The notes beneath the pieces are model-generated. The model made no database searches. It worked only from the letters and a program-made list of their open reading frames with translations, and had not been told where the DNA came from. DNA of 64,000 nucleotides from Candidatus Gugararchaeum adminiculabundum (GTDB lineage Archaea > Micrarchaeota > Micrarchaeia > Burarchaeales > Gugararchaeaceae): positions 71,970 through 135,969 of the forward strand of contig CABMDC010000012.1 in the NCBI GenBank assembly GCA_902384795.1. Reading direction: 5' to 3'. Shown here piece after piece: positions 15,346 through 38,340 of this stretch; the stretch's first letter is position 1, and each line of letters starts with the position of its first letter. The position numbers were made by a program, and so were the translations under genes.

Positions 15346-15448
15346 GGCGGGAAGGATAAATACACGAAAACCCATCAACAAACAAAAGGTATTTAAAGAA
15401 GTTCGTGTATAGTAATGGTGACAAATGTAATTTTTGTGGGAGATACTT

Positions 15449-17947: not shown

Positions 17948-17985
17948 GGCTAACTGTAGACTGGATAAATCCTTGGGGACCACAT

Positions 17986-22105: not shown

Positions 22106-22528
22106 CTACTGTTTCACTGCGCGTAGAACTTCTGTTTTTGTGACCTTGTTGTCAAAATGAGAATAGTCGCGGTAGTGCATGAAAGTAGTTACGGTGACAT
22201 TGTAGTCAGCAGGGTTGGTGGAAGTGTTGCTCCAGATTTCCACGTTCAAATTCTTGGATTCGTCCGGCTTGAACTGGCCGATGCGGAATTCTTTTCGGTG
22301 AGTTAAGCCGGTTTCATCGAACCCGAGCTGTTTTGGCAGATCGATGACTATGCTGGACATCACTGTCTGGCCCGAGATGTTGCGCACATAGGCGGTGAGA
22401 ACCGTCTTGTCCTTGCGGTTCGCGGCGAGCCTGAATGGCATTAAAGACAGGCGGATGACAAACGGGGTCTTGCCCGCAAGCTCCTTTTCATAGTCCTTCT
22501 TTCCGAGGATTGAATCTAGAAAGCCCAT
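22106..22528 (-). CDS. hypothetical protein
   Basis: ORF; ATG at 22528 preferred over GTG 22546. No family recognised. Confidence 0.4.
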   Translation of the reverse strand: MGFLDSILGKKDYEKELAGKTPFVIRLSLMPFRLAANRKDKTVLTAYVRNISGQTVMSSIVIDLPKQLGFDETGLTHRKEFRIGQFKPDESKNLNVEIWSNTSTNPADYNVTVTTFMHYRDYSHFDNKVTKTEVLRAVKQ

Positions 22529-22581
22529 GCTATAGAATCTGCTCACATAAGAATAAAAACCCTGCCAAAGTAACAGAAATC

Positions 22582-25047
22582 ATGTGCATTCTGAGAGTCG
22601 AGGGAAAGCGGGCCGTGATGGACTGCGCAGTTGACTCAATTGAAATGTTCACCAGCGACTGCGTGCACTCGCACCTCAAGGCGCTGACAACTCTTTCTGA
22701 TTTGGAGCTCAAAACCCTGCGCTACGAGGAGGAAATCATAGTCGAATACGGGGAGGAGAAAGCCAGCGTAATTTTGGAATACATCGACACCCTGAGGCAG
22801 ATTGAGGGAATTCTCCTCGATCCGACGACCTATGGAAGCACCCAGGACGAGGAATACGACAACAGGAAAAAGCTGCTCAAGCGGTTTTACGAGTATGCTT
22901 ACATGTCACCGCAGATGGCCTACCGGGTGCTCGCGGACTATAATGAGCCACAGCCCCAGCGAAGCCTTTACGTCGAAGGATGGCGGAAATTCAGGGCCTG
23001 GGTAAACGGCATTATGAAGAGCTACTCGGACACGCAGATGTACAAGATGTGCCTGAAGTTCGGGGATATCAGGAGCGTGTTCCTGGAACTCGCGAACCTG
23101 AGGAGCGCGCTTTTCCTGGAATCGCTTTTGCTAAAAGTGCCCGCGGACGCGAAGCCGCTCACAGGCAAGGATGCGGTCTATGATTTGGGTCATGGGATAA
23201 GGGCGAGAATTTACGAGCTGCCTGTGACCGAGACCTACCTTTACATTCACGAGAATCCAGAAGTCGACAACCTATCCCCGGAGCTGCAGAAAATCCTCAA
23301 GGAAGAAGTGGAAAAGGGGATGCAGGAGGCGCTGCCCGAGGGGGTGGATTTCGGCACCTATTTCGACGAAAGGACAAGGGATTTCAGGGCGCATTTCATT
23401 GACCGGGCTGAAAAGGAAAAGATAAAAATAACGCCCATGCAGGCGATGGCCATGGCACGGGAAGCATCTGCCTGGACAGTCGGCCTGGGAAGCCCGATAG
23501 AGAACATGTCCCTGGACAGGGCGAATATCACCGATGTTTATATTGACGGGGAGAACGCCCCGCTATATATAGAGCATATCAAGTTCGGCCTGTGCCACAC
23601 CTTGTGGAGATATAACAAGGCGATGATGCAGGGAGTGGTCAAGAATATCATTTCCACCACCAAGGGGACGAGGAAATTCGACCAGAATAACCCGGTTGTG
23701 GACGTGGTTCTCACAAGGCTGAATATGAGGTGCCACTTGCAACGCCCGCCAGCGACTTTCCGGGAAACCCAGGCTGCGCTGAGAATGACCAAGGAAACCC
23801 CGTTCACCTATGCGCAGTATTTGTACAACAAATCCATGAGCGCTTTCTCGGCGGGCTATGACGACTTGATGGTCACACTCGGGTGTTCCGAGGCAGTTTT
23901 GGGATTAAAGGGAGTCGGAAAAACAGCTTTTACCGCTGCGAAAGTTCTGGCAATCGGGCAGAAGAGAAGGATTCTGCCGATCCAGGATATTGAGGAAATT
24001 CCGACCATGGCTTACAGGAAAAGAGGGTTCCACATGGGCGCCATGAGGGTGCAATCCAGTGACAAGGAAGTTACCAGCAGCACTGAATTGGACCTGGTGG
24101 CCATGGCAAACGCGAGCCTGAGAATGGGAGATTCGTGCCTGATCATCAACGAAATCAGGTCACGCTTGGCAATCCAGGGGATTATCAATTTGCTGAACAC
24201 CCAGCCAGGGGTTTTCGTGCTCTACAATTTGCACGCAGAATCTTTGAGGGATGTGCAGGACAGGCTGGAACTGGTGTTCGGAGTCCCTTCTGCTTCCATG
24301 TTCACCACTGACAGGTATTCGTTCCTGAAGAAGGTGAGGTTCGGGAGAAAAGGAAGGGTCTACCGATTGCTCGGAAAGCAATATGAAACAGACCAGGAGC
24401 AGCACAAGTTTGCGGAGATATTCTCGTTCAAGAGAGGGGAATCGATTGATGACTCGAAATTGGAATGCGAATTTGTCGCAAACCCGGAGGCGAATCTCTG
24501 GGATTTGAGCGGAGTGAATATTGCGAAATTGGAAAAGGATTTGAAGGTCCATTACATTCCGCCCGCGCTTGCAAGAAGGGCGGAGGAGAGCGGCATAAAG
24601 CCGGAGCAATACATTGTGCAGGCTTTCATGAAAGGAAAAATGTACTCAACAATTACGAAGAAGGCGGTGGACAGCGGGAACAACGGTTTGCTGGAAATTG
24701 ACTTTGTGCTCAAATGCAACATGTACATGAACAAGCTTCTCAAGGAAAAGGAAAAACCGGATGGAAGCATAGATTTCGCGGAAATAGACAGGACCTGGGA
24801 AAAACAGTTCCCCTTGCTCGTGAGCGAATATGAGAGGGAAACACTGCAGGCAAAAGGCAAGCCTGAGCCCGAGAAGGCGAAGAAAGCGGCCGCTGAAGAG
24901 ATGAGCTCTGTGGAAGAGACAGGAGAGGGCGAAGAGGGAATACCTGATGCTGAAAGAGTGTCCGCTGGAACCGCCACAAGGAAACAGGAAAAGGAAAAAC
25001 CAAAAGCAACTGAAAAGGAGAAGCCTGCTGCTAAAAAGAAGAAATAA
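22582..25047 (+). CDS. divergent FlaI/VirB11/GspE-family secretion-type ATPase (oversized, about 820 aa)
   Basis: Walker A GLKGVGKTAF (GxxxxGKT), Asp box ILPIQDIEEI, Walker B-like LRMGDSCLIINEIRSRLA, then TQPGVFVLYNLHAESLRDVQDRL in place of the conserved His box. Long N-terminal extension and a Lys/Glu-rich C-terminal tail. Confidence 0.5.
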   Translation: MCILRVEGKRAVMDCAVDSIEMFTSDCVHSHLKALTTLSDLELKTLRYEEEIIVEYGEEKASVILEYIDTLRQIEGILLDPTTYGSTQDEEYDNRKKLLKRFYEYAYMSPQMAYRVLADYNEPQPQRSLYVEGWRKFRAWVNGIMKSYSDTQMYKMCLKFGDIRSVFLELANLRSALFLESLLLKVPADAKPLTGKDAVYDLGHGIRARIYELPVTETYLYIHENPEVDNLSPELQKILKEEVEKGMQEALPEGVDFGTYFDERTRDFRAHFIDRAEKEKIKITPMQAMAMAREASAWTVGLGSPIENMSLDRANITDVYIDGENAPLYIEHIKFGLCHTLWRYNKAMMQGVVKNIISTTKGTRKFDQNNPVVDVVLTRLNMRCHLQRPPATFRETQAALRMTKETPFTYAQYLYNKSMSAFSAGYDDLMVTLGCSEAVLGLKGVGKTAFTAAKVLAIGQKRRILPIQDIEEIPTMAYRKRGFHMGAMRVQSSDKEVTSSTELDLVAMANASLRMGDSCLIINEIRSRLAIQGIINLLNTQPGVFVLYNLHAESLRDVQDRLELVFGVPSASMFTTDRYSFLKKVRFGRKGRVYRLLGKQYETDQEQHKFAEIFSFKRGESIDDSKLECEFVANPEANLWDLSGVNIAKLEKDLKVHYIPPALARRAEESGIKPEQYIVQAFMKGKMYSTITKKAVDSGNNGLLEIDFVLKCNMYMNKLLKEKEKPDGSIDFAEIDRTWEKQFPLLVSEYERETLQAKGKPEPEKAKKAAAEEMSSVEETGEGEEGIPDAERVSAGTATRKQEKEKPKATEKEKPAAKKKK

Positions 25048-25077
25048 GAAATTAGCTTTGCCTGCTCCCTAACCTAT

Positions 25078-25692
25078 TTACCTGGGCCGTATTTGAGTCT
25101 CTACTTTTACCGGTCCCCTGTCAAAAGTTGGCTTCTTCGGGGCCGGGGCAGCCGGCTCGCTTGGCTTCTTTCCCCTTGAAAGGAAAATGATTATTTCCAT
25201 TACTGCGATTATTACGCCGATGTAGGGGTAGGTGATGCCGCCGACTAGGATGGGGATTAGGAACAGGCCGATTGGAATCAGGCGGTTCTGCGCGTTGCGT
25301 GAAATATAGGCGGACAGCCCGCTTGTGGCAAGCAGGAGAATCCAGACGAAGTAGCAGGTTAGCACATTGCCGCCCCGGATGTTTGCCAGGATGCCTGCGC
25401 ACCCGCTTTTCACTCCGAGAGTAAATGGCTGCGGGCCTGCGAGCGGAAGGACGCATTCGCTTGAATCCGCATAGCCCTCAACGCACTGGGCCGAAGAGAC
25501 CGCATTTTTGCTGACCAGTTCCTTATCAGTTGCTTCGGTTGCAAAAACACAAACACTCGCATTGTTGCAATAGCCTTCTGCGCAGTCGGCTGTCACTGAG
25601 CAGGACTGACCCACTTTCTTCAGCTGCTGAGCCGAAACTAGCGAAGCCAGGAGAATTGAAAGCAATGCGAACAGAAAAATTTTCTTCATCAT
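25078..25692 (-). CDS. Cys-rich secreted/membrane protein (signal peptide, knottin-like ectodomain, three or more TM helices, Pro-rich tail)
   Basis: MMKKIFLFALLSILLASLVSAQ signal. CSVTADCAEGYCNNASVCV and CVEGYADSSECV modules. TM helices CYFVWILLLATSGLSAYI, LIPIGLFLIPILVGGITYPYIGVIIAVMEIIIFL. Start is 2 nt after the giant gene stop. Confidence 0.5.
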   Translation of the reverse strand: MMKKIFLFALLSILLASLVSAQQLKKVGQSCSVTADCAEGYCNNASVCVFATEATDKELVSKNAVSSAQCVEGYADSSECVLPLAGPQPFTLGVKSGCAGILANIRGGNVLTCYFVWILLLATSGLSAYISRNAQNRLIPIGLFLIPILVGGITYPYIGVIIAVMEIIIFLSRGKKPSEPAAPAPKKPTFDRGPVKVETQIRPR

Positions 25693-25694
25693 TT

Positions 25695-28600
25695 TTACAA
25701 CAACTCCTTTAGGGGATTCTTCTCGCGCAATGCAAACGCGGCTATTTCAGTCAATGCCACTGCAACGCCGATGAATACTATGCTTACAAACCCTACGACC
25801 AGCGGGACTCCGAAGACTCCGAATGGGACTAGTTTGAATGGCTCTTTCCTTGCGGAATAGGCCGCTGTTGCGCTTAGCACAATCAATAGTGTCCAGAGTG
25901 AGGTGTTCAGCCAGTCGGGTATGGAAACCAGCTTTGAGCCCTTGGGCCCTTCTACGCATTTGTTTTCGGAACAGTATCCTATGCAGCAGTCCCCGGTTAT
26001 GGAGCATGATTTGCCTATTCCGCTGCATTGCCTGCAAACATTCTGGCTGCAGGCGGAACCCGCGCAGCACTGGCCGGATGTGTCACAGCCGCTTCCGATT
26101 GATTTGCATGGCTTTGGAATTTTGCAGAAACCGTTTTCACAGGAGCCTAGGCAGCAGTCGCTGTTCTGGGAGCAGGTGGAGCCAAGCGATTTCCCCAGGG
26201 GAATTAGCGTGACTGTGGCGGTATAGGCATTGTTGCTTCCTGCAAATGCAAGAGCCGAAGGAGCTGAAGTTGCTGAACCGAACCATAGGGCCTGAATCTT
26301 GGTGGCAGGGGCAGCAGATGAATCGGTTGGTGGAGCCTTGGTTGCAGCAGCACCAAACCACAGAGTCTGGAAGTTACTGGCTTCGGTGGATAAAACCTGA
26401 ATTGCTGCCACGCATTTTCCGTTAACTACACTTCCGAAGCAGCAGGTATTGTCATCGGTCATCTGTCCGCCAAGCTTTTCGCAGGTGGTGCACTTGCCAT
26501 CAACTAGCTGCCCAAAGCAGCAAGTGCCATCAACAGCTGGCGTTCCACCAAGCCTTTCACAGTTGGGAGCACATTTGTTGCTGCATTTTCCATTAAATAT
26601 TTGGCCGAAGCAGCAGGAACCTGATGGCAATGTTGCTCCGCCAAGCCCTTCGCAGGTGGTGCACTTGCCGTCGATTATGTTTCCAAAGCAGCAGGAATTG
26701 TCAGCCTGTGTTTTACCGCCGAGCTTTTCGCAGGTGGTGCACTTGCCATCAACTAGCTGCCCAAAGCAGCAGGAACCGTCATCCGTTGTCTTTGCGCCCA
26801 GGTCTTCACAAGTTGGGCATGGCGGGTTGGTGCAAGTTGGCTCGCATTTGCCGTTAACTACATTGGTAAAGCAGCAGGTGCCGTCTGCAAGAGGAACACC
26901 TCCTTTTTGTTCACATGTCTTGCAATCGCCAGTTGTGCAGCAGGTGCCGTCTGCAAGAGGAACACCTCCTTTTTGTTCGCATGTCTTGCAGCCTTCTCCT
27001 ATGCAGCAGGCGTCGTAGCCAATGAACTTGCCGTAGAGATCATAGGCACAATTCTTGCAGGTGCCGTCTGGAAGAGTGACTCCTCCGTTTTGTTCACAGT
27101 TACTGCACTTGCCATTGACTATCTTCCCGTGGCAGCAGGAGCCGTCTGGCATGGGCGTTCCGCCGAGCTTTTCGCAGTTGGTGCAAACACCGTTAACTAC
27201 CTTGTCAAAGCAGCAAGTTCCATCCGCAAGAGGAACTCCTCCTTTTTCTTCGCAGGTTGGGCATGGCGGGTCGGTGCACGAGGCGCATTGTCCATCCACT
27301 ATTTGAGTAAGACAACAGGAGCCGTCTGGCATAGTAACTCCTCCTTTGTCCTCACAGGTGCAGGGCGGGTTGGTGCAGCTTGGCTCGCATTGCCCGTTCA
27401 CTACTTGGGTTGCACAACAGGTGCCGTCGGGCATTGTTGTTTCGCCTGTGGGGCAGACCGACATGCATTTGCCGTCTATGACCGTGTTGGGCGGTGTGCA
27501 GCAGGAACCGTCGGACAGAAGTGTGCCGCCAGTTGAAACACAGTCTGGACACTCGATAGTCCCGCCGTCTACTTTGCACTTGTCACAACCATCTCCTACG
27601 CAACATGCATCGGATTTCAAGTAGTCTCCGCCAACGTCAGAGCTGGTGCAGTTTCTGCAGACTCCGTCTATGTATGCATCGCCTTTTGCAACGCATTTGC
27701 ATTCACCGGTTAAGCAGCAGGAACCGTCGGACATTGTTGTTCCGCCAAGTCCTTCACAAGTATCAACTATTACCGTAACTTTCTTTTTTTGTGGAATAGC
27801 GCAAGTAGTGGCCCCGCCATAGATATCTGAAGTGTCTGCCAGTGAAACCTGGGTTGCGGCGCTTAATGATAGAGTCTGGCGGCCACGGGTGGCCAACTCC
27901 AGGGACTTGTTGCACTCGCCATTGACTAGGTTTCCAAAGCAGCAGGAGCCATCTGGCGCTGTAACCGCACCTTTGTCCTCGCAGGTGTAGCTGCATGCAA
28001 TGGCAGCGTTGCAGTCAACATCAAAGCTGCTTACAAACTGCTTGCCTCCATCTTCGCAGGTGAAAACAACATCGGAGTTTTTAACGCAGCTAGGACAGGT
28101 GAAAACTGCAGTTGCAGTGAATGGAACTGCACCTTCTAATGGAGTTACGGTTAAGCTGCATCCCGATGGATTCGGGAGGTCGGTAACAGCAACGTTTTTT
28201 GCTTGCTCCGGAATTTCTTCAACAGTTGCCCTTGCTGCAAAAATGGTTTTTTCATTAACTTGTGGATAGGTGCATGTTCTGGATGCAGTAAATGTGTTGT
28301 CAAAGGAAACCGGAATGGCTGGGTCGCCTGGCATGCATGAGATTAGAGCAACGCCAATTGGCCTCTGGTCGCAGGTAACAATTATGTTTGAACTGAATTC
28401 GCCCACGTCCAGATCAGGACAGGCATAGGCATCACAAGTAAGATTCACCGGACATTCCGCTATCTCGAAATTAATGCTCTTTGAAGCATAGTGGGGTTTG
28501 GCCACCAGGGCGATATATTTGCCTGGCAAATCCGGAGTGAATGTTAAATTGCCATCACTGCCAGTTGTGAATGTGGAACCGAGGGAGGGAACAGGCGTTA

Positions 28601-31600
28601 GCGTGCCATCTGAATTTATGCGATAGAAGCTGGCAGTCACGTCTGGGATCGGAGTGCCGATGGGTTCTCTGGCAGTGAACAATGCAGATTTGCCGGCGCA
28701 TACTTTGTTGTCCAAGGTGAAATCCAATTTACAGGTGTTGCTTGCTTCACAGGTTTTGGGCGGATTGACAATGTCAATGGAGCAGCCGGTGAGTGTCTCC
28801 ACAGCGCTCACAATTGGATCGTACCCCGGCTTGCTGCATGAGCAATACCAGGAATGCGTATCATCGCTGAGGTTGCCCATGGTATAGGTATAACCAGTAT
28901 CGGTCTCGATTGTGCTGTGCGACGTTCCGTCCAGATAGACCGAACAGGTGGCGTAGGGCAAGTGATTTGGATATGAACCCGGTCCATATTTTACTCTGCC
29001 TTCAGCAGCAACGAAACGGGTCATGGAGAATGAAACATAAGAGGTATTTGTTCCGCCTGCTCCCATCATGAAAACCGTTGAGGAGGTAAAGTCAACACCT
29101 GTTATGAGCTGGTTAAGATGATTGCCAGGAGCGGAATAGGTGAGGTTGAGAACGTGAGTGTCTTCATTGTAATCAAAACTCAGATTGCCATCTTTGGCGG
29201 AATAGTTGCCGTAAGTTGGGCCAAAGGGCGTGAACTGGTTTGAACCGCTCGCATTGGTTACCATTATTATAAAGGTGACGGGTATGGCCGAATCGTTGAA
29301 GAAATAGACAGTGATTGCGTGGCCGGTCGTTGGGTCGGAAAGCATTAACGCCCCCATGGACCGATTTTGACCGTCAGGATTTGCGCGCAGGTCTGCGGAG
29401 ATATTGTCAAGCTCAAGGTGGTGGAGGTTTAATTGTGGCTGGAATGACACTAAGGCAAAGTCATTCTCTGTAGTCGAGGTCCCGTTGAAAACCAGGGCGC
29501 CATTTTGCTGGACCATCGTGACATTGGAACCTGCGCCGGCAACAGGAGACCAGTAATAGGGGTTCAGGTACGTGCTGTTGAAGTAATCTACATAAGCCTG
29601 CGGGTCAGATGACTTCTCCAAGAGCAGGATATTGCCGATTCCAAATTGCATCGAAGAACTGTTTGTTGCGCCGCTGATAATTTCGAATGTCGTGTTATCC
29701 GTGAAAGTCAACCCGCCAACGGTTAGGGCGTTTTGCGATAGAGAATCTGGATTCGTGTAGTTTATGACAAGCCAGTTCCGAACCCGGTCATAGGTGAGGG
29801 TGATTGTGTCGTTTACCGGAGCATAGGAGGTTAACTGGGCGTATGCCCCCTGGCCAAAGCCGTAGTATGAGCCGGTTGAGTTTACAACGTCAGAAATCAC
29901 CACAAATGGGATTGGCGGCATGCTGGTGGAATAATTTAAGGCAACAGGATATGAGTAACCGGGTGTAACATTGAAAGTGCTATTGAAAACCGAATCATTG
30001 AAAGTGAAATCATTGCCCACACCATGGCCGATTAAAGCGCTCTTGACAAATGCATAACAGGGAGCGTGAATCAAATTAGTGACATCGGAACAGTTCATAA
30101 GCCCGCAGGAGGAACTCCAGTAGACAGTGGTGTCGTCGAATGCAGGGAAGCCCGATGCATCTATGCAGGAAACATCATAACTCTCATCCGGATTTGCGCC
30201 TTGCAGCAATTCACCGTCATAACTTACTTCTTCTATGCTTGGGCTGGTTCCCATCCCAGTGGGGCAGGTGAGGAGGAACGTTACGCGGCCTGGGCCGGTA
30301 ATCCCATTGGTGCAGTCCCTGCCGTCTGTGGTAACAGGTGAAAACGAGGAGGAGTATCCAACGGATGCACCCGAATAGTTGATTAACATCACTGAAAGCT
30401 TGTTGCCATTTGACCCGTCATAGAGTTTCAACTGCACGTAGGAATAGTTTTCTGTGTCGGATGTGGCATTGAGCTGGATGGTAAGATTGCTTAGTTTTAT
30501 TATATAGGGCTGGAAGCTGTGATTGAATAATATGGAAGTGGAATCGCTCTCAGATGATGTCGAATCCACTGTTCCGTTGAAATAGAGGCGCCCGTCTTGA
30601 TAAATCGTGAGGTTGTTTCCCTGAACCGCGGGATCCCAAAGGTTTGGATTGATGGTAGTGCCTTCGAAATAATCTTGGTAGAGCGTGGACTGAACCGCGG
30701 CATGGTAATCGCAAGTAAATTCAGTCGTTGTGCTATTTCCTCCGTTATAGACCGTATCGCAATGAACGCCCATAAGAATTTCCGTGGTATTGGCAAAGTA
30801 CGGTTCAGCGCAGGTGTTTGTTTCGTCACAATAGCCAGTGCAGCAGGATTCGTTATCAGCGCACGGATCTGCAAGAGCCAGGCAATCGACACAGGTGTTG
30901 TTTAGGGGTTCACAGAGGTCTGAGCAGCAGGAAGAGTTGGTGGTGCAGGTGGTGCCATCCGGAATGCAGTCGCAAGTAAATGTGTCAAGGTTGCAAAAGT
31001 TAGAGCAGCATTGCGAGTTGTCATTGCACATTTCGCCTAGGGCGGTGCAATCGCAGATGCCGGTGAAAATGTTGCAGTACTCTGAGCAGCAGGATTCATT
31101 GGTAGTGCAGACAGTACCATCGGCATAGCAGTCACACTCACCTGAGGATAGATTGCAATAGCCCGTGCAGCAGTCGATGTTGCCGGTGCATGAATCTGTG
31201 GCAGGCAGACAGGAAACGCAGGTGCCGGACAGGGGATCGCAGAGGCCGGAGCAGCAGTCAGCGTTGCCGGTGCATGAATCTGCGAGCGCGAGGCAGGAAA
31301 CGCAGGTGTTGTTCAGTGGTTCGCAGAGGTTTGAGCAGCAATCTGTGTTGTTATCGCAGGGATTGGTGAGCGGCTGGCAGGCGCAAATGCCTCCGTCGCA
31401 GAAGTCAGTGCAGCAGGAAGCGTTGTCAGTGCAGGTGGTGCCAGTGGCATTGCATTGGCAGGTGTTTGTAGTGAGATTGCATGAACCAGAACAGCAGTCG
31501 AGATTGTCGATGCATCCGGCAGCAACTGGCAAACAGTCGACGCAGATGGCGGCGTAACATATGTCTGAACAGCAGGAGGCGTTTTCAGTGCATGAATCTG

Positions 31601-34600
31601 TGGCAGGCAAACAAGCGACACAGGTGCCGGAGATAGGATCGCATAGGCCAGAGCAGCAATCAGAGCCTGAAGTGCAGGCGGCGGTGTTAACTTTGCAGTC
31701 GCACTCGTTCGTTGCATTGCAATAATCAGTGCAGCACTCCGAATCTTGTGTGCAGGCTTCACCTATTCCATTGCAGTTGCCCTCTAATATTCCATATAGG
31801 GAGCCGGGAGTAAGGCCGTTGAGAGTAAGCGTGTTCGCCTGGGTATCGAGGGTTGCGTGCATCTCGACCCAGCCGCCAGCATCGTAGCGCCAAATATCAA
31901 AAGTGCCTTCTTTGTCAGCACTGGTGACTTCACTGTCATCCCAGGAGAAGACAACCGTGTCTATTGCGCCAGTGCCTGTTGCTGTGATGTTCACAAATTT
32001 CTGGCGGAAGGACACATAGTCAGTGGGCAGGGAAGTGCTGTTTGTCGCCCATTTGACCAGGTAACCATAGTTTGATTCGACATTATCGATTATCGAAATG
32101 CGCGTGAAGTTTGTGTAATTTCCATAGTAGGGATTGTCTATGTACATGTTTGAAAGCCGGATGTTGTCCATGGCACCGCCCGTTCGGACGATGTATAAAT
32201 CTCCTTGTGAATTGTTATAGAAATGGAAGTTCGAAGCATTCACATTGCTTGTGTCAAATAGCGCCATTCCGTAGCCAGTGTTGCTGAAGAGGGTGTTGTT
32301 GCTCATAATGAAACCAGAGCTGCTCATGATCCCTATGCCCTCAAGGCTGGTGCTGATGTTGTTTCCGGAGATTGTGGAATAGGAGGACAGGCTGCTTATG
32401 AAGCCGATGCCTGCGCCGGTCGAGCGAGTGATGGAATTATTGTAAATTGATAATTGACGGGAATCAATGGCGAAGACACCATAGCTGCTGTTTGAAATAT
32501 CGTTTCCGACTATGGTATTGTTATTCGGATTCGGGTGAACGGCGATGAGATAAATTGCAGAAGTGGTATTGGTGATATTGTTGTGTGTAATCAAGTCCAT
32601 CGGATGGTCCGCTATTATGTAAACGCCGGCCTGGAAACCGGTAATGTTGTTCCCGGATGCATATACTGAAGAATTGATATTTGCTATGGCAGCACCCGTT
32701 GCAGAGAGCGACCGGATGTCGTTATTGATCACGTTCATCTGGCCCCGCTGTACGAGGACAAACGGAACCTCATGACCGCTAAATGAAAGCCCGTTGAAAA
32801 ATATTGAATAGACGGACATGCCATAGTCTGCGGACACATTAATGGAATTGTCCTGGACAGTGAAGACGCCGGCGTAATCCAGAGCCAGCTTGCCATGGGA
32901 AACTATCTTGCTGTCGGTGATAGCTACAATAACGTTCATCAGCCCATAGAACCCTGCGTAGGAGTTGTTTCCGCCATTGCTATAGTAGATAGTGTTGTTC
33001 GAGAAAGTAGCGCGGGTGCTCCAGACATCGGGGCCAGGGGGCGTACCGCCCATGAACATGACGACAAGCAGATATCCCAGCCCTCCAGTCAGCGGATTTG
33101 CGGTTTCCATATACGCAGCATCGCTGGATGTGATGTTAAAGTAGCTGTCATAAACAGTCGCATTGCTGAGGTCTTCAAGTACGATTGTAGCTTTTTTCTC
33201 GAAATCACTGTCATGCAAAATAACCGTTGCATTGTAAACATGAATCGAAGCCGGCAGAGGACCGAGACTGCCACCCAGAAGCGGAGTCCCCAGGGAAGCG
33301 GAATTGTTTGTGTCAAAAAGAAATGAGACATTTGTAATTTGGTGGTTGTTGTAGAAGAGGATTCCATAGGCGCAGTCGTGGATTTCGTTTTGGTATGCTG
33401 CCTCGCTGTATAGCATATTGTCATCTACGCCCTCCCCTCCGTAGAAAAACCTGTCACTTGCCGTAGTATCAATGCCGTAGGTAAAGCTTGATTCATTGCA
33501 GCGTATGATAGCATTCTCCAGGCGGAGCGTGTTATTGGAATGTATCACCGCATAGTAGAGATCGTTCCGGGAGGTTATAGGGCTTATCACGCCATTGTAA
33601 AACTTAACCATATCACCGCCAGTCATGTCAATGGCGGTCATATTGGGGAACCGGCGCGATATGCTATCAAGCTGACAGCCGCCCACGCCTCCACAACCAA
33701 TACGGTTGTATTGTGGAGAGCCGATTGCGAGATTGATTTCAGAATCTATCAAAGTGAGGTTGGAATTAGCCATGAAAACGGCGAGGTATTCAGGGTAAAT
33801 AGTGTGACCGTATTCGTAGTTGAGGAAGTACGTTAGATGGGTGCCCCAGCTAAAACCATCGTAGAGATCGGTTCCGCCCGTAAAAGAGTGATAATAGGTA
33901 GGGAGTTGACGTGGAATGCCTATTGTAACGTCAGTTAAAATGGCTTCGGCTTTGTCCACGCTAAGCCCTATGGTTACGTTTGAATTAGATAGAGACAATG
34001 CGTTAGGCTGGCGGATTCCGGGGATATATGTTGAAGACTGCGGACCACTACCCGCCCCGTAGGCATTCTCCGCGATGTAAGCATTGCCGATGATTGAATT
34101 CGTGACTGTGACAAGTTGAGTGCCCCGCAACACACTGAAATCGCCAGCGATTTCTGAATTGTCAACAGTAATTGTTGTGGCAGGCGTTGCGCTGTTCCAG
34201 CAGGTTGTTGCCTCGAAACTGCCCAATATGCTGTCGGATACATCGGCGTCTGCATGGTCAACTGACACACCGCTCGCAGAGTCTCCGGTGTAGAGGGTCG
34301 CGCTTGGATTGACGTCTTCCACTGAGATGCTGGCTTTATTCCAGCCGTACAGGCAGCTGCGGGACTGCTCTCCGCAATTCGCGTTTCCAGTGGTGTTGAA
34401 AACAAGGGCATTGCAATTGGCCGTGTCTTGGGCATTTCGGGCGTAGTAAAGGCAGAAATTGCGTATAGCAGCATATGAATTGCTTAGGCACCAGTTGTAT
34501 TCGTCGTCACTGCGAGTGCCAGAAGTTAAACTGACACCGCTGGTTGTTTCTAGACCGGAAATGCTGGCGGACGTGCCTCCGCCTTCTTTGTCTTTTATGG

Positions 34601-35408
34601 TAACGCTAGAAGCGCGGCCAGTGACGTCCACTGTGTTAGCCCGCTGAATATTGATGGAAGTTTCGAGATTTGGGCCGTTATAGCTGGGGGTTGGGTCATA
34701 ATCAATATAGGTAATGTCAGGGGTCGTGGAACCGCCGGCATAGCAGTAGCCGCACTCGTTTGTTATTACATTATCACTGCCTGCGCTATTTACACTACTA
34801 CTGCCTTCTTCCCAATAGCTAACGACATTGCTCTGTGAGAAATTCATTGGGCCGCCGCCGCATATTACCTTGTCTCCTGGTGCGCTATTGGGAGTACAAG
34901 AGTCCGGATGAGGGCAATCGGAATAGGCGCACTGCCAATATTCGACTGAAGCGTTTCGACCGTAATACCCGTTGCAACTAGATAGAAATTGGTCTTCTGT
35001 TTCGCAACCTCTAATTGCGTCTCTCATCGTATTGTAACTGCTAGGAGAGTTAGTTTGATAACGCGACAGGGCGGTGCAATCGACTTGATAGTAAGTGTAA
35101 TGGCCACCCCAGCCATCAGGTACTTGGTAGGAGGAAGAAAAGGCGCTCGGCAGGGAGTAGTCGTTGGAACGTCCGCAGACACATCCGTAAGTTCCGCAAC
35201 TTTCTTCCACTTGCTTGTCAGCTGGCACAGTGCATGTATTGGCGCAACCACTAGAATGCCAGGAAGCGTAGGTAGAGGCGACACATCCACCTGAGGAATA
35301 GGGGTCGCTGGGAGTATAGTAAGTACATGTTGCAAAGGAAACGGGCGTCAAAGCTATGAGAATGAAAAAGAGGAAATACACTGCAGGCAGCAGCTTTTTT
35401 CCCATCAT
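25695..35408 (-). CDS. giant secreted cell-surface protein (3237 aa): signal peptide, beta-helix-like repeats, two Cys-rich tandem module arrays, C-terminal TM anchor
   Basis: Single uninterrupted 9714-nt ORF. N-terminus MMGKKLLPAVYFLFFILIALTPVSFA. PbH1-like repeats (NNITGFQAGVYII, NNITNTTSAIYLIA, GNDISNSSYGVFAI, YNNSITRSTGAGIGF...). About 12 modules of CxDNxDCCSGxCxxxxxTC. About 16 modules of GGxxxxDGSCCFGxxVxGKCTTCE. Dense NxT/S sequons. C-terminal helices LWTLLIVLSATAAY and FGVFGVPLVVGFVSIVFIGVAVALTEIAAFAL. Confidence 0.7.
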   Translation of the reverse strand: MMGKKLLPAVYFLFFILIALTPVSFATCTYYTPSDPYSSGGCVASTYASWHSSGCANTCTVPADKQVEESCGTYGCVCGRSNDYSLPSAFSSSYQVPDGWGGHYTYYQVDCTALSRYQTNSPSSYNTMRDAIRGCETEDQFLSSCNGYYGRNASVEYWQCAYSDCPHPDSCTPNSAPGDKVICGGGPMNFSQSNVVSYWEEGSSSVNSAGSDNVITNECGYCYAGGSTTPDITYIDYDPTPSYNGPNLETSINIQRANTVDVTGRASSVTIKDKEGGGTSASISGLETTSGVSLTSGTRSDDEYNWCLSNSYAAIRNFCLYYARNAQDTANCNALVFNTTGNANCGEQSRSCLYGWNKASISVEDVNPSATLYTGDSASGVSVDHADADVSDSILGSFEATTCWNSATPATTITVDNSEIAGDFSVLRGTQLVTVTNSIIGNAYIAENAYGAGSGPQSSTYIPGIRQPNALSLSNSNVTIGLSVDKAEAILTDVTIGIPRQLPTYYHSFTGGTDLYDGFSWGTHLTYFLNYEYGHTIYPEYLAVFMANSNLTLIDSEINLAIGSPQYNRIGCGGVGGCQLDSISRRFPNMTAIDMTGGDMVKFYNGVISPITSRNDLYYAVIHSNNTLRLENAIIRCNESSFTYGIDTTASDRFFYGGEGVDDNMLYSEAAYQNEIHDCAYGILFYNNHQITNVSFLFDTNNSASLGTPLLGGSLGPLPASIHVYNATVILHDSDFEKKATIVLEDLSNATVYDSYFNITSSDAAYMETANPLTGGLGYLLVVMFMGGTPPGPDVWSTRATFSNNTIYYSNGGNNSYAGFYGLMNVIVAITDSKIVSHGKLALDYAGVFTVQDNSINVSADYGMSVYSIFFNGLSFSGHEVPFVLVQRGQMNVINNDIRSLSATGAAIANINSSVYASGNNITGFQAGVYIIADHPMDLITHNNITNTTSAIYLIAVHPNPNNNTIVGNDISNSSYGVFAIDSRQLSIYNNSITRSTGAGIGFISSLSSYSTISGNNISTSLEGIGIMSSSGFIMSNNTLFSNTGYGMALFDTSNVNASNFHFYNNSQGDLYIVRTGGAMDNIRLSNMYIDNPYYGNYTNFTRISIIDNVESNYGYLVKWATNSTSLPTDYVSFRQKFVNITATGTGAIDTVVFSWDDSEVTSADKEGTFDIWRYDAGGWVEMHATLDTQANTLTLNGLTPGSLYGILEGNCNGIGEACTQDSECCTDYCNATNECDCKVNTAACTSGSDCCSGLCDPISGTCVACLPATDSCTENASCCSDICYAAICVDCLPVAAGCIDNLDCCSGSCNLTTNTCQCNATGTTCTDNASCCTDFCDGGICACQPLTNPCDNNTDCCSNLCEPLNNTCVSCLALADSCTGNADCCSGLCDPLSGTCVSCLPATDSCTGNIDCCTGYCNLSSGECDCYADGTVCTTNESCCSEYCNIFTGICDCTALGEMCNDNSQCCSNFCNLDTFTCDCIPDGTTCTTNSSCCSDLCEPLNNTCVDCLALADPCADNESCCTGYCDETNTCAEPYFANTTEILMGVHCDTVYNGGNSTTTEFTCDYHAAVQSTLYQDYFEGTTINPNLWDPAVQGNNLTIYQDGRLYFNGTVDSTSSESDSTSILFNHSFQPYIIKLSNLTIQLNATSDTENYSYVQLKLYDGSNGNKLSVMLINYSGASVGYSSSFSPVTTDGRDCTNGITGPGRVTFLLTCPTGMGTSPSIEEVSYDGELLQGANPDESYDVSCIDASGFPAFDDTTVYWSSSCGLMNCSDVTNLIHAPCYAFVKSALIGHGVGNDFTFNDSVFNSTFNVTPGYSYPVALNYSTSMPPIPFVVISDVVNSTGSYYGFGQGAYAQLTSYAPVNDTITLTYDRVRNWLVINYTNPDSLSQNALTVGGLTFTDNTTFEIISGATNSSSMQFGIGNILLLEKSSDPQAYVDYFNSTYLNPYYWSPVAGAGSNVTMVQQNGALVFNGTSTTENDFALVSFQPQLNLHHLELDNISADLRANPDGQNRSMGALMLSDPTTGHAITVYFFNDSAIPVTFIIMVTNASGSNQFTPFGPTYGNYSAKDGNLSFDYNEDTHVLNLTYSAPGNHLNQLITGVDFTSSTVFMMGAGGTNTSYVSFSMTRFVAAEGRVKYGPGSYPNHLPYATCSVYLDGTSHSTIETDTGYTYTMGNLSDDTHSWYCSCSKPGYDPIVSAVETLTGCSIDIVNPPKTCEASNTCKLDFTLDNKVCAGKSALFTAREPIGTPIPDVTASFYRINSDGTLTPVPSLGSTFTTGSDGNLTFTPDLPGKYIALVAKPHYASKSINFEIAECPVNLTCDAYACPDLDVGEFSSNIIVTCDQRPIGVALISCMPGDPAIPVSFDNTFTASRTCTYPQVNEKTIFAARATVEEIPEQAKNVAVTDLPNPSGCSLTVTPLEGAVPFTATAVFTCPSCVKNSDVVFTCEDGGKQFVSSFDVDCNAAIACSYTCEDKGAVTAPDGSCCFGNLVNGECNKSLELATRGRQTLSLSAATQVSLADTSDIYGGATTCAIPQKKKVTVIVDTCEGLGGTTMSDGSCCLTGECKCVAKGDAYIDGVCRNCTSSDVGGDYLKSDACCVGDGCDKCKVDGGTIECPDCVSTGGTLLSDGSCCTPPNTVIDGKCMSVCPTGETTMPDGTCCATQVVNGQCEPSCTNPPCTCEDKGGVTMPDGSCCLTQIVDGQCASCTDPPCPTCEEKGGVPLADGTCCFDKVVNGVCTNCEKLGGTPMPDGSCCHGKIVNGKCSNCEQNGGVTLPDGTCKNCAYDLYGKFIGYDACCIGEGCKTCEQKGGVPLADGTCCTTGDCKTCEQKGGVPLADGTCCFTNVVNGKCEPTCTNPPCPTCEDLGAKTTDDGSCCFGQLVDGKCTTCEKLGGKTQADNSCCFGNIIDGKCTTCEGLGGATLPSGSCCFGQIFNGKCSNKCAPNCERLGGTPAVDGTCCFGQLVDGKCTTCEKLGGQMTDDNTCCFGSVVNGKCVAAIQVLSTEASNFQTLWFGAAATKAPPTDSSAAPATKIQALWFGSATSAPSALAFAGSNNAYTATVTLIPLGKSLGSTCSQNSDCCLGSCENGFCKIPKPCKSIGSGCDTSGQCCAGSACSQNVCRQCSGIGKSCSITGDCCIGYCSENKCVEGPKGSKLVSIPDWLNTSLWTLLIVLSATAAYSARKEPFKLVPFGVFGVPLVVGFVSIVFIGVAVALTEIAAFALREKNPLKELL
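26400..27600 (-). repeat. intragenic tandem repeats (about 90-nt unit) encoding GGxxxxDGSCCFGxxVNGKC modules, some copies near-identical at DNA level
   Basis: For example, gccgagcttttcgcaggtggtgcacttgccatcaactagctgcccaaagcagca occurs at about 26466 and about 26728 almost identically. A 50-nt duplicate at about 26877 and 26942 encodes KTCEQKGGVPLADGTCC twice. Confidence 0.6.
30800..31790 (-). repeat. intragenic tandem repeats (about 99-nt unit) encoding CxDNxDCCSGxC knottin-like modules
   Basis: The protein shows 12 consecutive modules such as CTDNASCCTDFCDGGIC, CDNNTDCCSNLCEPLNNTC and CTGNADCCSGLCDPLSGTC. Antisense ORFs in the track are themselves repetitive. Confidence 0.6.
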
Positions 35409-35743
35409 GTGTATCTGCTCCTTAGCGCTCGATAATCAGGAGGCGCGGGCATCTTATCTGTAGGCCCTGTTTGGTTATAAGTAAGAACCTGTTGAATTGA
35501 TGCTTCCTGCTCTTGGATTAATTGCGGATTGGGTTGGGGCAATGGCAGAAGCGATGAAACAGCGGATTTTGTCCCTTGCCCTGCCTGCCCGGCACCGTCG
35601 TCGTCTGAAACAAGAGCATTGGCAGCAGGCGAAGATTGGGTGAAAGAAAAGGAGATGTATAACAGTGAGATTACGACGATGGAGACTAATAGGCAGATAA
35701 CTAATAGCGAACGGCTATAAGTAAGACCTTTGACCACACGCAT
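35405..35743 (-). CDS. small single-TM protein, first gene of the giant-protein operon
   Basis: TM helix SLLVICLLVSIVVISLLYISF followed by a Gln/Pro-rich tail. Its stop overlaps the giant gene start by 4 nt (ATGA). Confidence 0.45.
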   Translation of the reverse strand: MRVVKGLTYSRSLLVICLLVSIVVISLLYISFSFTQSSPAANALVSDDDGAGQAGQGTKSAVSSLLPLPQPNPQLIQEQEASIQQVLTYNQTGPTDKMPAPPDYRALRSRYT

Positions 35744-35814
35744 CGAATTTGCTTTTAAACATGCGAGTATTTAAATATTTCTGAAATCGTTCAGAAGGTA
35801 AAGGGAGTGGAAGG

Positions 35815-36897
35815 ATGGGAGTGCACGAAAAGATCCGCGAAATTGAGGAAGAGATGGCGCGAACGCAGGTCAACAAGGCTACTGAAAGGCATCTGGGCCT
35901 GCTGAAAGCGAAGTTGGCAAAATTGAAAAAAGAGATAATTGGAGGAAAGGGAAGCAAAAAAACAGGAAGCTCGGGATTTGACGTAAAAAAAAGCGGTGAC
36001 TCGACAGTTGTCCTGATTGGATTGCCGAGCGTGGGTAAAAGCACAATCCTGAACAAGATGACAAAGCAGCAGTCTAAGGTCGCTGCCTATGCGTTCACAA
36101 CTCTCACAGTGATCCCGGGAATTTTCGAGTATAAGGGAGCAAAAATCCAGATTCTGGATTTGCCGGGAATCATCAGCGGCGCGAAAGAGGGCGCTGGACG
36201 CGGAAGGGAAATTCTGTCAGTTGCAAGAAGCGCGGATTTGATTATGATAATTCTGGACGTGTTCCACCCGAACATCAAAACCATTCTGGACGAGCTGGAA
36301 GGATTCGGGATCCGCCTGAACCAGAAGCCGCCCAATGTGGTGATTACGAAAAAGCAGAAGGGCGGAATCACTGTGAACCGCACGGTGAAGACCACGAAAT
36401 TGGATGACAAAACAATTGAGGATGTCCTTGGGGAATACGGGATGCACAGCGCGGACGTGGTTATCCGCCAGGATGTTTCGGTCGATGAATTCATTGACGT
36501 GGTGGTGGGAAACCGCGAGTATATTCCGGCAATCACCGTGCTGAACAAGGTGGATTTGGTGAGCAGGGATTATTTGAAGCAGGTAAAATTTTCCTATCTT
36601 CCTGTCGCTGCCGAGAAAAATTTCAACATTGACAAGCTGAAGGATGCGGTTTATGACGGGCTTGACCTGATCCGCGTTTACACAAAACCCAGGATGGGGG
36701 AGGCGGACATGAAAGAGCCCATGATTGTGCGCAGCGGAATTACGGTGGCGGAATTCTGCGACCGGCTGCACAGGGACCTGAGAAAAAATTTCAAGTACGC
36801 GCAAATTTGGGGAACGAGCGCGCGGTTCCAGGGGCAGAAAGTCGGCATTGAGCACAGGCTTAAAGACGGGGATATTGTGACGATTGTAGCAAGATAA
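35815..36897 (+). CDS. developmentally regulated GTP-binding protein (DRG/Obg-family GTPase with C-terminal TGS domain)
   Basis: G1 GLPSVGKST, G3 LDLPGII, G4 NKVD, and a C-terminal TGS-like region (LIRVYTKP...GDIVTIV). TATA TATTTAAATATT lies about 35 nt upstream. Confidence 0.8.
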   Translation: MGVHEKIREIEEEMARTQVNKATERHLGLLKAKLAKLKKEIIGGKGSKKTGSSGFDVKKSGDSTVVLIGLPSVGKSTILNKMTKQQSKVAAYAFTTLTVIPGIFEYKGAKIQILDLPGIISGAKEGAGRGREILSVARSADLIMIILDVFHPNIKTILDELEGFGIRLNQKPPNVVITKKQKGGITVNRTVKTTKLDDKTIEDVLGEYGMHSADVVIRQDVSVDEFIDVVVGNREYIPAITVLNKVDLVSRDYLKQVKFSYLPVAAEKNFNIDKLKDAVYDGLDLIRVYTKPRMGEADMKEPMIVRSGITVAEFCDRLHRDLRKNFKYAQIWGTSARFQGQKVGIEHRLKDGDIVTIVAR

Positions 36898-37392: not shown

Positions 37393-38340
37393 TTAGACGA
37401 GATTGAATGTCACTAGCACATTTGTCCAGTCAACTGAAGAGCGCACTGTCCCTTCCTGAAGCAGAATATAGGGATTGACTCTTGGCGCATCCAGCATGCC
37501 CACGCCCATATCTTTGGGAAGCCTTACTTCGAAATGGAACATTGGGCGGAGATTTTTTGCATTGCCGCTGTTTCCTGTTTTTTGCAATGGAGTGTCAACT
37601 GTGACTTCCTGCCCCTCGGCCGCCAGATTTTCGCCAGCATGCAGGTAGCGGGTGTGGAGGATTCCCTGGATGGGCCCCGCATCGGTGTAAACAGTGACCA
37701 CTGAATCATGATTTACATTTATGTAGTAGCCTGCGTCGGCATCAAAGTGTGCATGGCGCACTTCTCCATCGCGCGCTGCAAAAACTAAGTCGCCTTTTGT
37801 GAGCGCCCAGTCAACTCCTGAATGGGTTTTGCCCTTCCCGGCCCAGGGGCGCGGGCGGCCATAGGCGCCGGTGCGCGAGAGCGGCGGCTTGTCCATGTTC
37901 ATGTCAAAAATTCCTGCATTGAAAAAATCCGGGTTGAATCCACGCGCAGGGAGGATTAGCTTGGGATCTGAAACAATGGTCAAATTGCCGTCGCCTGTGA
38001 GCGAAACTTCACGCTTTGCCAGCATGGTGAACGCCTGGGCATATTCACTTTCTTGCAGGGAATGGCTCGAATCAAGAAGAGGATCGTTTATCATGGGCTG
38101 GTGCGATTTTTCAAGTGAAACCACGAATTTTATTTCAGGCTGTTTTGTTTTTTCGTTTATGCAGATTAGCTGGAGGATTTTTGCATCAGTGACTTCTGGA
38201 AATTCGTTTTTTTCATATTTGCCCATGAATAGGCGGCAAAACTCCAGGGAAGGCGCCGTGGAAAGAAGGGAAATGACATTGGCGCCCGGAGTTTTTCCGA
38301 GAAAATTTCTTGCTGGTGTTGGGTTTTTCAAAATTGCCAT
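37393..38340 (-). CDS. M23 family metallopeptidase (LytM/lysostaphin-like domain), no signal peptide evident
   Basis: HSGVDWA...GDLVFAARDGEV...AGYYINVNHD...TRYLHAGENL...QKTGNSGNA...HFEV reproduces the HxxxD and HxH M23 motif series. Confidence 0.65.
   Translation of the reverse strand: MAILKNPTPARNFLGKTPGANVISLLSTAPSLEFCRLFMGKYEKNEFPEVTDAKILQLICINEKTKQPEIKFVVSLEKSHQPMINDPLLDSSHSLQESEYAQAFTMLAKREVSLTGDGNLTIVSDPKLILPARGFNPDFFNAGIFDMNMDKPPLSRTGAYGRPRPWAGKGKTHSGVDWALTKGDLVFAARDGEVRHAHFDADAGYYINVNHDSVVTVYTDAGPIQGILHTRYLHAGENLAAEGQEVTVDTPLQKTGNSGNAKNLRPMFHFEVRLPKDMGVGMLDAPRVNPYILLQEGTVRSSVDWTNVLVTFNLV

Follow-up and report, generated by a model that had tools for sequence, protein, structure and literature searches.

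In this paper we analyse a 64,000-nucleotide stretch of the contig CABMDC010000012.1 of Candidatus Gugararchaeum adminiculabundum (the window, below), in which a gene for a giant protein of 3237 amino acids (aa) is followed on the same strand by a gene for a 204-aa membrane protein (p204). It is found that the two proteins have in common a homologous C-terminal domain that includes a membrane anchor, that this domain defines a family, and that a larger anchor-bearing gene followed directly by a small paralog recurs in other Micrarchaeota. Direct support exists for the homology of the two proteins, for the family, for the operon signals and for the recurrent pairing. The overall reading that we favour, with a probability of roughly 0.55, is that the giant would be a glycosylated, disulfide-rich adhesin and that p204, its small paralog, would co-assemble with the anchor of the giant as a membrane base.

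The domain common to the giant protein and p204

With BLASTP, residues 25-177 of p204 align with residues 3073-3232 of the giant (59.7 bits, E=4e-14, 27% identity), and the cysteine (Cys) motif CSVTADCAEGYC aligns with CSQNSDCCLGSC. The original prediction had noticed a Cys module common to the two proteins; its motifs do align, but the common element is the whole C-terminal domain, with the membrane anchor included. Its suggestion that p204 is the anchor has to be given up, because the giant has an anchor of its own within residues 3073-3232. When the two halves of the domain are compared with 2000 shuffles, the anchor part scores 128 versus 25.8 ± 4.8 (z=21) and the ectodomain part scores 73 versus 34.2 ± 6.2 (z=6.3). 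The anchor half is better conserved between p204 and the giant than the ectodomain, and its similarity exceeds that given by generic hydrophobicity. The positions that are conserved between the two proteins include W117, R132, P140, P147, G151, G159 and E166 (p204 numbering). Within the window the domain is present in the giant and p204 genes only.

p204, which is called ‘Uncharacterised protein’ in the public record and has a codon-usage score inside the coding range (0.18), consists of a signal peptide, two small Cys modules, a juxtamembrane GVKSGCAG...C element, three predicted helices and a basic, Pro-rich tail. Its hydropathy profile has, besides the signal peptide, hydrophobic stretches at residues 110-128 and 136-175. 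In the second module (residues 64-80, window 25453..25503) Cys 1 and Cys 3 of the four are lost, with GYA in place of GYC, and this loss would fit a 1-3 / 2-4 disulfide pairing in which one bridge has been lost. AlphaFold2 with the family alignment gives p204 helices at 109-133, 138-153 and 156-172, with a mean predicted local distance difference test score (pLDDT) of 77.8 and values of 88-96 over residues 111-170. For a 177-aa segment of the giant's C-terminus it gives a helix at 105-128 and one long helix at 134-168 (pLDDT about 83-86). For the anchor a topology of three spanning helices, N-out/C-in, was considered. Its basic residues flank the first loop and the tail, with none in the middle of the stretch, which favours three spans, although the models disagree. 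The anchor is described here as hydrophobic, with two or three predicted helices.

p204 shares 40% identity with the stand-alone proteins of the P0003 group; with the C-terminus of the giant it shares 27-29% over the whole alignment and 35% in the anchor. The anchor of the giant has its nearest counterparts in two other large proteins, P0041 and P0032. Judging from these identities, p204 and the giant are old paralogs. A recent tandem duplication was considered as the origin of p204 and is rejected, since p204 is closer to the small proteins of other organisms than to its neighbour.

The anchor family

A profile made from the p204 and giant copies, which covers p204 over its full length and residues 3061-3237 of the giant, was searched against 1.84 billion cluster representatives and found 62 proteins at E<=1e-3, 30 of them at E<=1e-10. 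In homolog searches by word index, p204 and the giant each matched only themselves, and the family alignment gave only five matches. An exact-sequence look-up of p204 among contigs gave no match. The family has two forms. The first consists of stand-alone proteins of about 170-250 aa with a signal peptide, two Cys modules, the anchor and a charged tail, their motifs being two copies of C-x6-C-x3-G[YF]C-x4-6-C and then GxKSGCxG...C...C[ND]xxW. In the second form the domain stands at the extreme C-terminus of proteins of 450-4031 aa, the upstream regions of which are beta-helix, Ig-like or Cys-module regions with many N-glycosylation sequons. All family members that carry an organism name belong to Micrarchaeota or Micrarchaeia. 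The anchor domain has no Pfam or NCBIfam model, with only weak matches to Conotoxin_I2, Dickkopf and late-nodulin. Based on these searches, we take the domain to be a Micrarchaeota-specific anchor-domain family that is not covered by Pfam and is new within the theme of giant DPANN surface proteins.

Over the 62 non-redundant sequences, P147 is conserved at 100%, G159 at 98%, W117 at 92% and E166 at 85%, and the two juxtamembrane Cys at 96% and 91%; E166 is predicted to be a membrane-embedded Glu in the last helix of the anchor. The anchor pattern of the family consists of a Trp where helix 1 starts, basic residues in the first loop, the invariant Pro, Gly-x-x-x-x-Pro-x-x-Gly in the middle of the stretch and the Glu of the last helix. 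p204 conforms to it (W117, R132, P147, G151, P156, G159 and E166), and the anchor of the giant has the equivalent residues except for Val at P156. As for the motif of the stand-alone subtype, p204 has all four Cys in module 1 but only the second and fourth in module 2, and KSGCAG and the last Cys are present, with Tyr for N/D. The giant's C-terminus, by comparison, is made of CC-type modules without the KSGCAG loop.

The giant protein

The giant is called ‘Right handed beta helix region’, from Ca. Gugararchaeum adminiculabundum, in the public record. Both it and p204 are identical to proteins of this organism on a 268,376-bp contig, and the neighbouring GTPase comes from the same record. It consists of a signal peptide, a right-handed beta-helix, two arrays of Cys modules, uncharacterised central domains and the C-terminal membrane anchor (Table 1), with 220 Cys in total; its hydropathy profile has the signal peptide and a hydrophobic stretch at residues 3190-3229. 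The beta-helix passes the Pfam cut-offs, with 47.5 bits for PF13229 (cut-off 25.9) and 31.8 bits for PF05048 (23.6). In array 1 the regular-expression map gives the module spacing C-x(4-8)-C-x(5-7)-CC-x(3-4)-C-x(3-9)-C, and residues 1200-1530, scanned alone as a segment, match Pfam UPF0506 in five stretches (E=2.7e-7, 31.3 bits, cut-off 23.2). The modules of array 2 are of the type C-E-x-x-G-G-x4-D-G-S-C-C-x7-G-x-C and have no Pfam match. Tandem duplications are seen in the DNA of the arrays at window 26871..27010, 27234..27434 and 31167..31340, with units of 66 and 102 nucleotides (nt) in array 2 (87% and 77% identity) and a unit of 84 nt in array 1 (80% identity). The identities of 77-87% indicate, as far as can be judged from the repeats, an ongoing turnover of Cys modules with recent module gain.

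The giant has 79 N-glycosylation sequons versus 45 expected. Most of these lie in the two thirds farther from the membrane, the distal domains being enriched 2- to 2.5-fold, and the membrane-proximal third has nearly none. Because of the signal peptides, the excess of sequons and the number of Cys, the product is considered to be extracellular. It would be a secreted, N-glycosylated, disulfide-rich modular surface protein, likely an adhesin or a fibre. What it has in common with the other large members of the family is confined to its anchor and Cys arrays. With Pfam it gave no match to a PKD, LamG, protease or nuclease domain, and no sequence relative was found in PDB at E<=1. A ConA/LamG-like identity that had been considered for the central region (residues about 1530-2240) was dropped for want of Pfam support.

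Gene layout and transcription signals

The original prediction described a tight three-gene operon in which a 112-aa open reading frame (ORF), here p112, precedes the giant gene. The ATGA overlap that it gave between p112 and the giant gene is seen at 35405-35408 (acATGAtgg), the stop codon of p112, TGA, running into the start codon of the giant gene, and p204 does start 2 nt past the stop of the giant gene (TAA-aa-ATG, 25690-25697). Both internal genes have a Shine-Dalgarno-like AAGGAG at a short distance from the ATG (Table 1). Ahead of the ATGs of the giant and p204 genes no TATA-like box was seen on inspection of the sequence, in agreement with one transcription unit. The only such box of the unit is the palindromic one in the divergent intergenic region, about 28 nt ahead of the p112 ATG. 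The motif TTTAAATA in it starts 32 nt upstream of this ATG and occurs exactly in 8 copies in the window versus 2.4 expected, and boxes like TTTAAATA lie 28-33 nt ahead of at least five other ATG starts (40040, 45152, 47931, 52174 and 56909).

A TATA-like box at such a distance from the ATG is the geometry of leaderless archaeal transcripts. The geometry at the six ATGs, that at 35743 included, indicates that leaderless transcripts are common in this genome. The box at 35768-35777 would be the promoter of the operon, of archaeal type and with a leaderless first ORF, and, being palindromic, it might possibly drive the divergent DRG GTPase gene too. At the other end, a T-rich tract, ATTTCTTATTTCTTCTTTTT, begins 26 nt past the p204 stop and is a putative oligo-T terminator of archaeal type. 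The unit is bordered by the divergent DRG GTPase gene, 71 bp off, and by a convergent ORF that ends 30 nt past the p204 stop. The genes are read as one transcription unit, since there is one TATA box, both internal genes have a Shine-Dalgarno sequence, and the junctions are too short to hold further signals, and a single transcript across them is well supported by these sequence signals. The three-gene operon thus stands as far as the TATA box, the AAGGAG sequences and the spacing are concerned, while p112, with its poor codon usage, is not a conserved component of it. Scans for bacterial sigma-70 promoters and intrinsic terminators gave no enrichment (8 versus 11.4 and 9 versus 11.0, respectively), the models being bacterial and uninformative for an archaeon. 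A frameshifted single gene was also considered for the giant and p204 and is rejected, as each of the two ORFs starts with a signal peptide of its own.

Pairing of large and small genes in other Micrarchaeota

A scan with a subfamily alignment, with one genome per species, gave 13 loci in nine assemblies, four of the assemblies having two loci each. At each of these loci (13/13) a larger anchor-bearing gene, of about 450, 790, 1010 or 1190 aa, lies immediately upstream of the small gene and on its strand. In two related Micrarchaeia lineages (L001-L005) a gene of at least 947 aa or of 1006 aa, which ends in the same anchor (domain E about 1e-30), is followed by the small member after 10-11 nt. 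Within the paired clade of the 13 loci the identities are 42-97% among the large-type anchors and 39-97% among the small-type ones versus 20-31% between the partners of a pair. Large members group with large ones and small with small, and therefore the pair predates the speciations and was inherited and duplicated as a unit. Of the two small genes that the original prediction placed beside the giant, the downstream paralog is found at all of these loci, while an equivalent of the upstream p112 is found at none.

The domain also occurs in split arrangements. In L021-L024 an anchor protein of about 450 aa is preceded, with an overlap, by a gene for a very large anchorless secreted protein (2718 aa in L023), and the small paralog follows the anchor protein there too. 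In L033 (1..8808), an anchorless 2720-aa NosD/beta-helix protein and a CARDB protein precede a 935-aa Cys-rich anchor protein. By comparison, the giant of the window looks like the fused form of such an arrangement of a giant and a Cys-rich anchor protein, and from the split and fused versions it may be suggested that a variable distal cargo is carried on the Cys-rich anchor part, which would act as its stalk.

A few further observations were made on the related loci. At least the large anchors of the L003 type in the paired clade have Leu for the intramembrane Glu, which their small partners keep; both copies in the window have Glu. In L018 the giant gene, for a 4031-aa relative, is followed by glycosyltransferase and CAP-domain genes and no small anchor paralog, and at 15112..17685 the same locus has an eRF1 gene with an intein that carries a LAGLIDADG endonuclease. 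L030 (DYKD01000070.1) has a pair of the Micrarchaeota type, with an anchor protein of 1193 aa and a small protein of 224 aa, yet its contig is assigned to a metagenome-assembled genome of the spirochaete Brevinema andersonii and is probably mis-binned.

Interpretation of the pair

In the reading that we favour, the giant would be held in the membrane by the Micrarchaeota-specific C-terminal domain, that is, by Cys modules, a juxtamembrane Cys loop and an anchor of two or three helices. p204, which is essentially the anchor with a minimal ectodomain, would be translated off the same mRNA via its own Shine-Dalgarno site, and its homologous helices would co-assemble with the anchor of the giant into a hetero-oligomeric membrane base. 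The original prediction spoke of a dedicated membrane partner. The succession of an anchor gene and a small paralog at the 13 loci agrees with a partner, but as solitary small members exist, p204 is better regarded as an auxiliary anchor subunit that might serve other anchor-bearing proteins as well.

It should be noted that a number of points weigh against this co-assembly, and most of them can equally be taken as support for a different view, in which p204 is simply a minimal member of the family that came to lie next to the giant gene by tandem duplication or 3'-end recombination and works alone. Five small members (P0003, P0039, P0004, P0007 and P0010) are solitary genes. Three large ones (P0035, 3868 aa; P0059, 2279 aa; P0044, 4031 aa) are monocistronic without a small neighbour, and a fourth, P0041 (L033), lies in an operon without a small partner. 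In GCA_043810245.1 the small P0010 and the large P0059 are on different contigs, and therefore linkage is not required. The giant has a complete anchor of its own. Its identity with the large-type anchors of the universally paired clade is no more than 13-21%, so that the adjacency in the window may be an independent event. With p204 and its nearest relatives as the query, nothing was found among genome contigs and only two 2-kb contigs among metagenomes, so that no close relative of the operon was obtained for a direct comparison of synteny. The two structural models, moreover, render the 35-residue hydrophobic stretch as one long helix in the giant versus a hairpin in p204. The adhesin role, though likely, is read from the types of domains only, and the co-assembly itself is something that we infer purely from the sequences. 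Nevertheless, the view of independent paralogs seems doubtful to us. p204 is not a recent copy of its neighbour, as the identities given above indicate. In the paired clade the adjacency has been kept in 13/13 loci, which come from nine species-level assemblies, and it has outlasted a duplication of the pair as a whole, a persistence that archaeal gene order rarely has without selection, and the spacing is tight everywhere (2 to about 12 nt, or overlapping).

Two other ideas may be set beside the favoured co-assembly of p204 with the anchor of the giant. p204 might be a biogenesis factor, i.e., a membrane chaperone, a helper for insertion or disulfide formation or a quality-control decoy, which binds transiently to the anchor or the Cys modules of the giant during secretion. 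The co-transcribed, downstream position of its gene would agree with this, the conserved GYC and KSGCAG motifs of the ectodomain and the intramembrane Glu could be functional sites, and the small members are kept as single genes in many genomes, as for a general factor. All the same, we regard it as quite improbable. The other idea extends the co-assembly to the whole family. The stand-alone proteins and the anchors of the large proteins might form a Micrarchaeota-specific hetero-oligomeric platform, previously undescribed in archaea, that mounts giant adhesins, with the small subunits completing its helical-bundle base. The conserved intramembrane Glu would lie at the interface of the helix bundle, and variable cargo (beta-helix, CARDB or Cys-knot stalks) would either be part of the same chain as the anchor or dock to it as a protein of its own. 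This extension is speculative and we would not count on it; if it is true, the structures by which these symbionts make contact with their hosts might be built on such a platform.

The 112-aa open reading frame

p112 has a basic N-terminal stretch, one hydrophobic helix at about residues 12-33 and a Pro/Gln-rich low-complexity tail, and the single transmembrane segment that the original prediction gave it is thus confirmed by hydropathy. As a conserved protein of the locus it does not survive the comparison with the related loci retrieved, in none of which an equivalent was found upstream of the large gene. p112 is thus a lineage-specific addition. We consider it somewhat probable that it is translated, in which case it would be a small signal-anchored protein. 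Its ATG lies at the distance of a leaderless start from the only TATA box, its end overlaps the start of the giant gene exactly, and the probability that any one ATG is followed by 112 stop-free codons is only about (61/64)^112 = 0.005. The basic N-terminus is followed by a clear hydrophobic helix, and in codon usage none of the other five frames scores higher, one antisense frame being its equal.

These features stand against a two-gene operon in which p112 would be a mere open stretch of a 335-nt 5' leader, a chance frame that gives no functional protein. To such an operon we give a little less credence than to translation, and several results agree with it. The codon-usage score of p112, -0.17, is under every coding window of the training genes (all at least 0.09), although it is above that of most non-coding frames (mean -0.45, 95th percentile -0.08). 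Neither the exact sequence nor its variant with a GTG start is present in the public protein collection searched, where the three neighbours are present. There are no homologs in the related loci, no Pfam or NCBIfam match, and the tail is of low complexity. A riboswitch or another structured RNA in the p112 region was also considered and is rejected, as Rfam has no family match there at E<=0.1.

The start of p112 (MRVVKG/LTYSRS LLVICLL) was compared with archaeal class III, or pilin, signals. K-G-L-T is present, but Arg stands at +5 and the helix begins at +7, and no pilin model of Pfam or NCBIfam matches. A FlaI/VirB11-like ATPase is encoded convergent with the operon, and no multi-span platform protein was seen nearby. 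The resemblance to a class III signal may be kept as a weak lead.

Other features of the window

Table 1. Features of the locus, with window positions; the last row gives positions in the related locus L023
Feature	Position	Strand	Details
p112 (112-aa ORF)	35405..35743	minus	coding status uncertain
Giant gene, 3237 aa	25695..35408	minus	
p204 gene, 204 aa	25078..25692	minus	
Right-handed beta-helix, giant residues 898-1097	32118..32717	minus	Pfam Beta_helix E=2e-12, NosD E=1.3e-7
Cys-module array 1, giant residues 1206-1525	30834..31793	minus	about 12 modules, 70 Cys; regular-expression map
Cys-module array 2, giant residues 2472-2976	26481..27995	minus	about 20 modules; regular-expression map
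C-terminal domain common with p204, giant residues 3073-3232	25713..26192	minus	three Cys modules, then hydrophobic anchor
Shine-Dalgarno-like AAGGAG, giant gene	35418..35423	minus	9 nt to ATG; read from sequence
Shine-Dalgarno-like AAGGAG, p204 gene	25704..25709	minus	within the last codons of the giant gene; 11 nt to ATG; read from sequence
Palindromic TATA-like box TATTTAAATA	35768..35777	none	in 71-bp divergent intergenic region
T-rich tract ATTTCTTATTTCTTCTTTTT	25033..25052	minus	begins 26 nt past p204 stop; overlaps 3' end of convergent ORF
Split arrangement, locus L023	466..10510		

RadA and a DRG-type GTPase are encoded near the locus, fitting an archaeon. The convergent ORF (22510..25047, plus strand) is for a divergent secretion or pilus ATPase of the FlaI/VirB11/TadA type (NCBIfam E=2e-14 to 1e-9, all far below the equivalog cut-offs). 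As the public collection does not contain a protein with exactly this sequence, the TTG listed as its start is probably wrong. The divergent gene (35815..36897, plus strand) has the domains MMR_HSR1, MMR_HSR1_Xtn and TGS, i.e., the architecture of a DRG/Obg-type GTPase, and its public name, ‘Fe(2+) transporter FeoB’, is likely a misannotation. At 37393..38340, on the minus strand, a 315-aa protein is encoded with a Peptidase_M23 domain (E=4.9e-12), a peptidoglycan-type endopeptidase fold in an archaeon, which might act on bacterial neighbours. Upstream of radA lie three consecutive ORFs of 580, 837 and 607 aa (13603..19809, plus strand), each with one predicted hydrophobic segment and no significant Pfam match.

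Significance

DPANN archaea rely on contact with other cells, and little is known of how their giant surface proteins are fixed in the membrane. From this locus a conserved anchor domain can be defined, so far found in Micrarchaeota only, that is either fused to adhesin-like giants or stand-alone, and the pairing recurs across distant lineages. The profile and the two-gene module thus provide a handle for finding surface and host-interaction proteins of Micrarchaeota and for testing hetero-oligomeric anchoring in species that have been cultivated. The genome of Ca. Gugararchaeum adminiculabundum is a metagenome-assembled DPANN Micrarchaeota genome and the sole member of its order (PMC8561730). 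The locus is not discussed in that paper, in which the words giant, large protein and beta helix do not occur.

Comparison with known systems

Knottins, of which the omega-conotoxins are an example, have the inhibitor-cystine-knot framework C-C-CC-C-C. The modules of array 1 are like them in having six Cys with a CC doublet and in passing the UPF0506 profile. Unlike knottins, they follow one another in long series, a dozen or more, within a membrane protein of an archaeon, and the stand-alone family uses, in place of the six-Cys module, a four-Cys version, C-x6-C-x3-GYC-x4-6-C.

Giant surface proteins are known from other DPANN archaea. The SPEARE proteins of Nanohaloarchaeota were reportedly described by Hamm et al. 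in 2019, and Micrarchaeon Mia14 has giant surface proteins of the PKD/CARDB/LamG type (PMC5498576). The giant of the window is like these in being a very large, lineage-specific, secreted, multi-domain protein of a small genome, and such proteins are thought to mediate cell-cell contact. Its beta-helix is a domain type that archaeal surface proteins typically have. Unlike the Mia14 and SPEARE giants, it has Cys-knot-like arrays, a multi-helix anchor that belongs to a family, and a stand-alone paralog; neither such arrays nor such an anchor with a stand-alone paralog was found in the literature searched.

The anchor also differs from the sorting signals of the archaeosortase/PGF-CTERM type. These are short, tripartite C-terminal signals, whereas the C-terminal domain of the giant has about 160 residues and several helices, and neither the giant nor p204 has an NCBIfam match, and thus none to a model for such a signal. 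A looser likeness, offered as an analogy only, is to the cubilin-amnionless receptor (cubam) of animals, in which a giant protein outside the cell depends for its function on a small partner that spans the membrane (PMC6283879). Unlike the pair in the window, cubam is eukaryotic, its two proteins are unrelated and cubilin has no transmembrane segment.

A comparison on the archaeal side is offered by a preprint on the Micrarchaeota S-layer, which explicitly leaves the anchoring open and invokes SlaA and the membrane stalk SlaB of Sulfolobales as a possible model for it (10.1101/2021.04.28.441871). No similarity to S-layer domains was found in the giant or p204 with Pfam and NCBIfam. As with SlaA and SlaB, which make up one surface structure, the window has adjacent genes for a large outer protein and for a small one that is anchored in the membrane. 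By contrast, SlaA is an anchorless large protein and the two partners are unrelated, whereas the giant has an anchor of its own and p204 is a paralog of that anchor.

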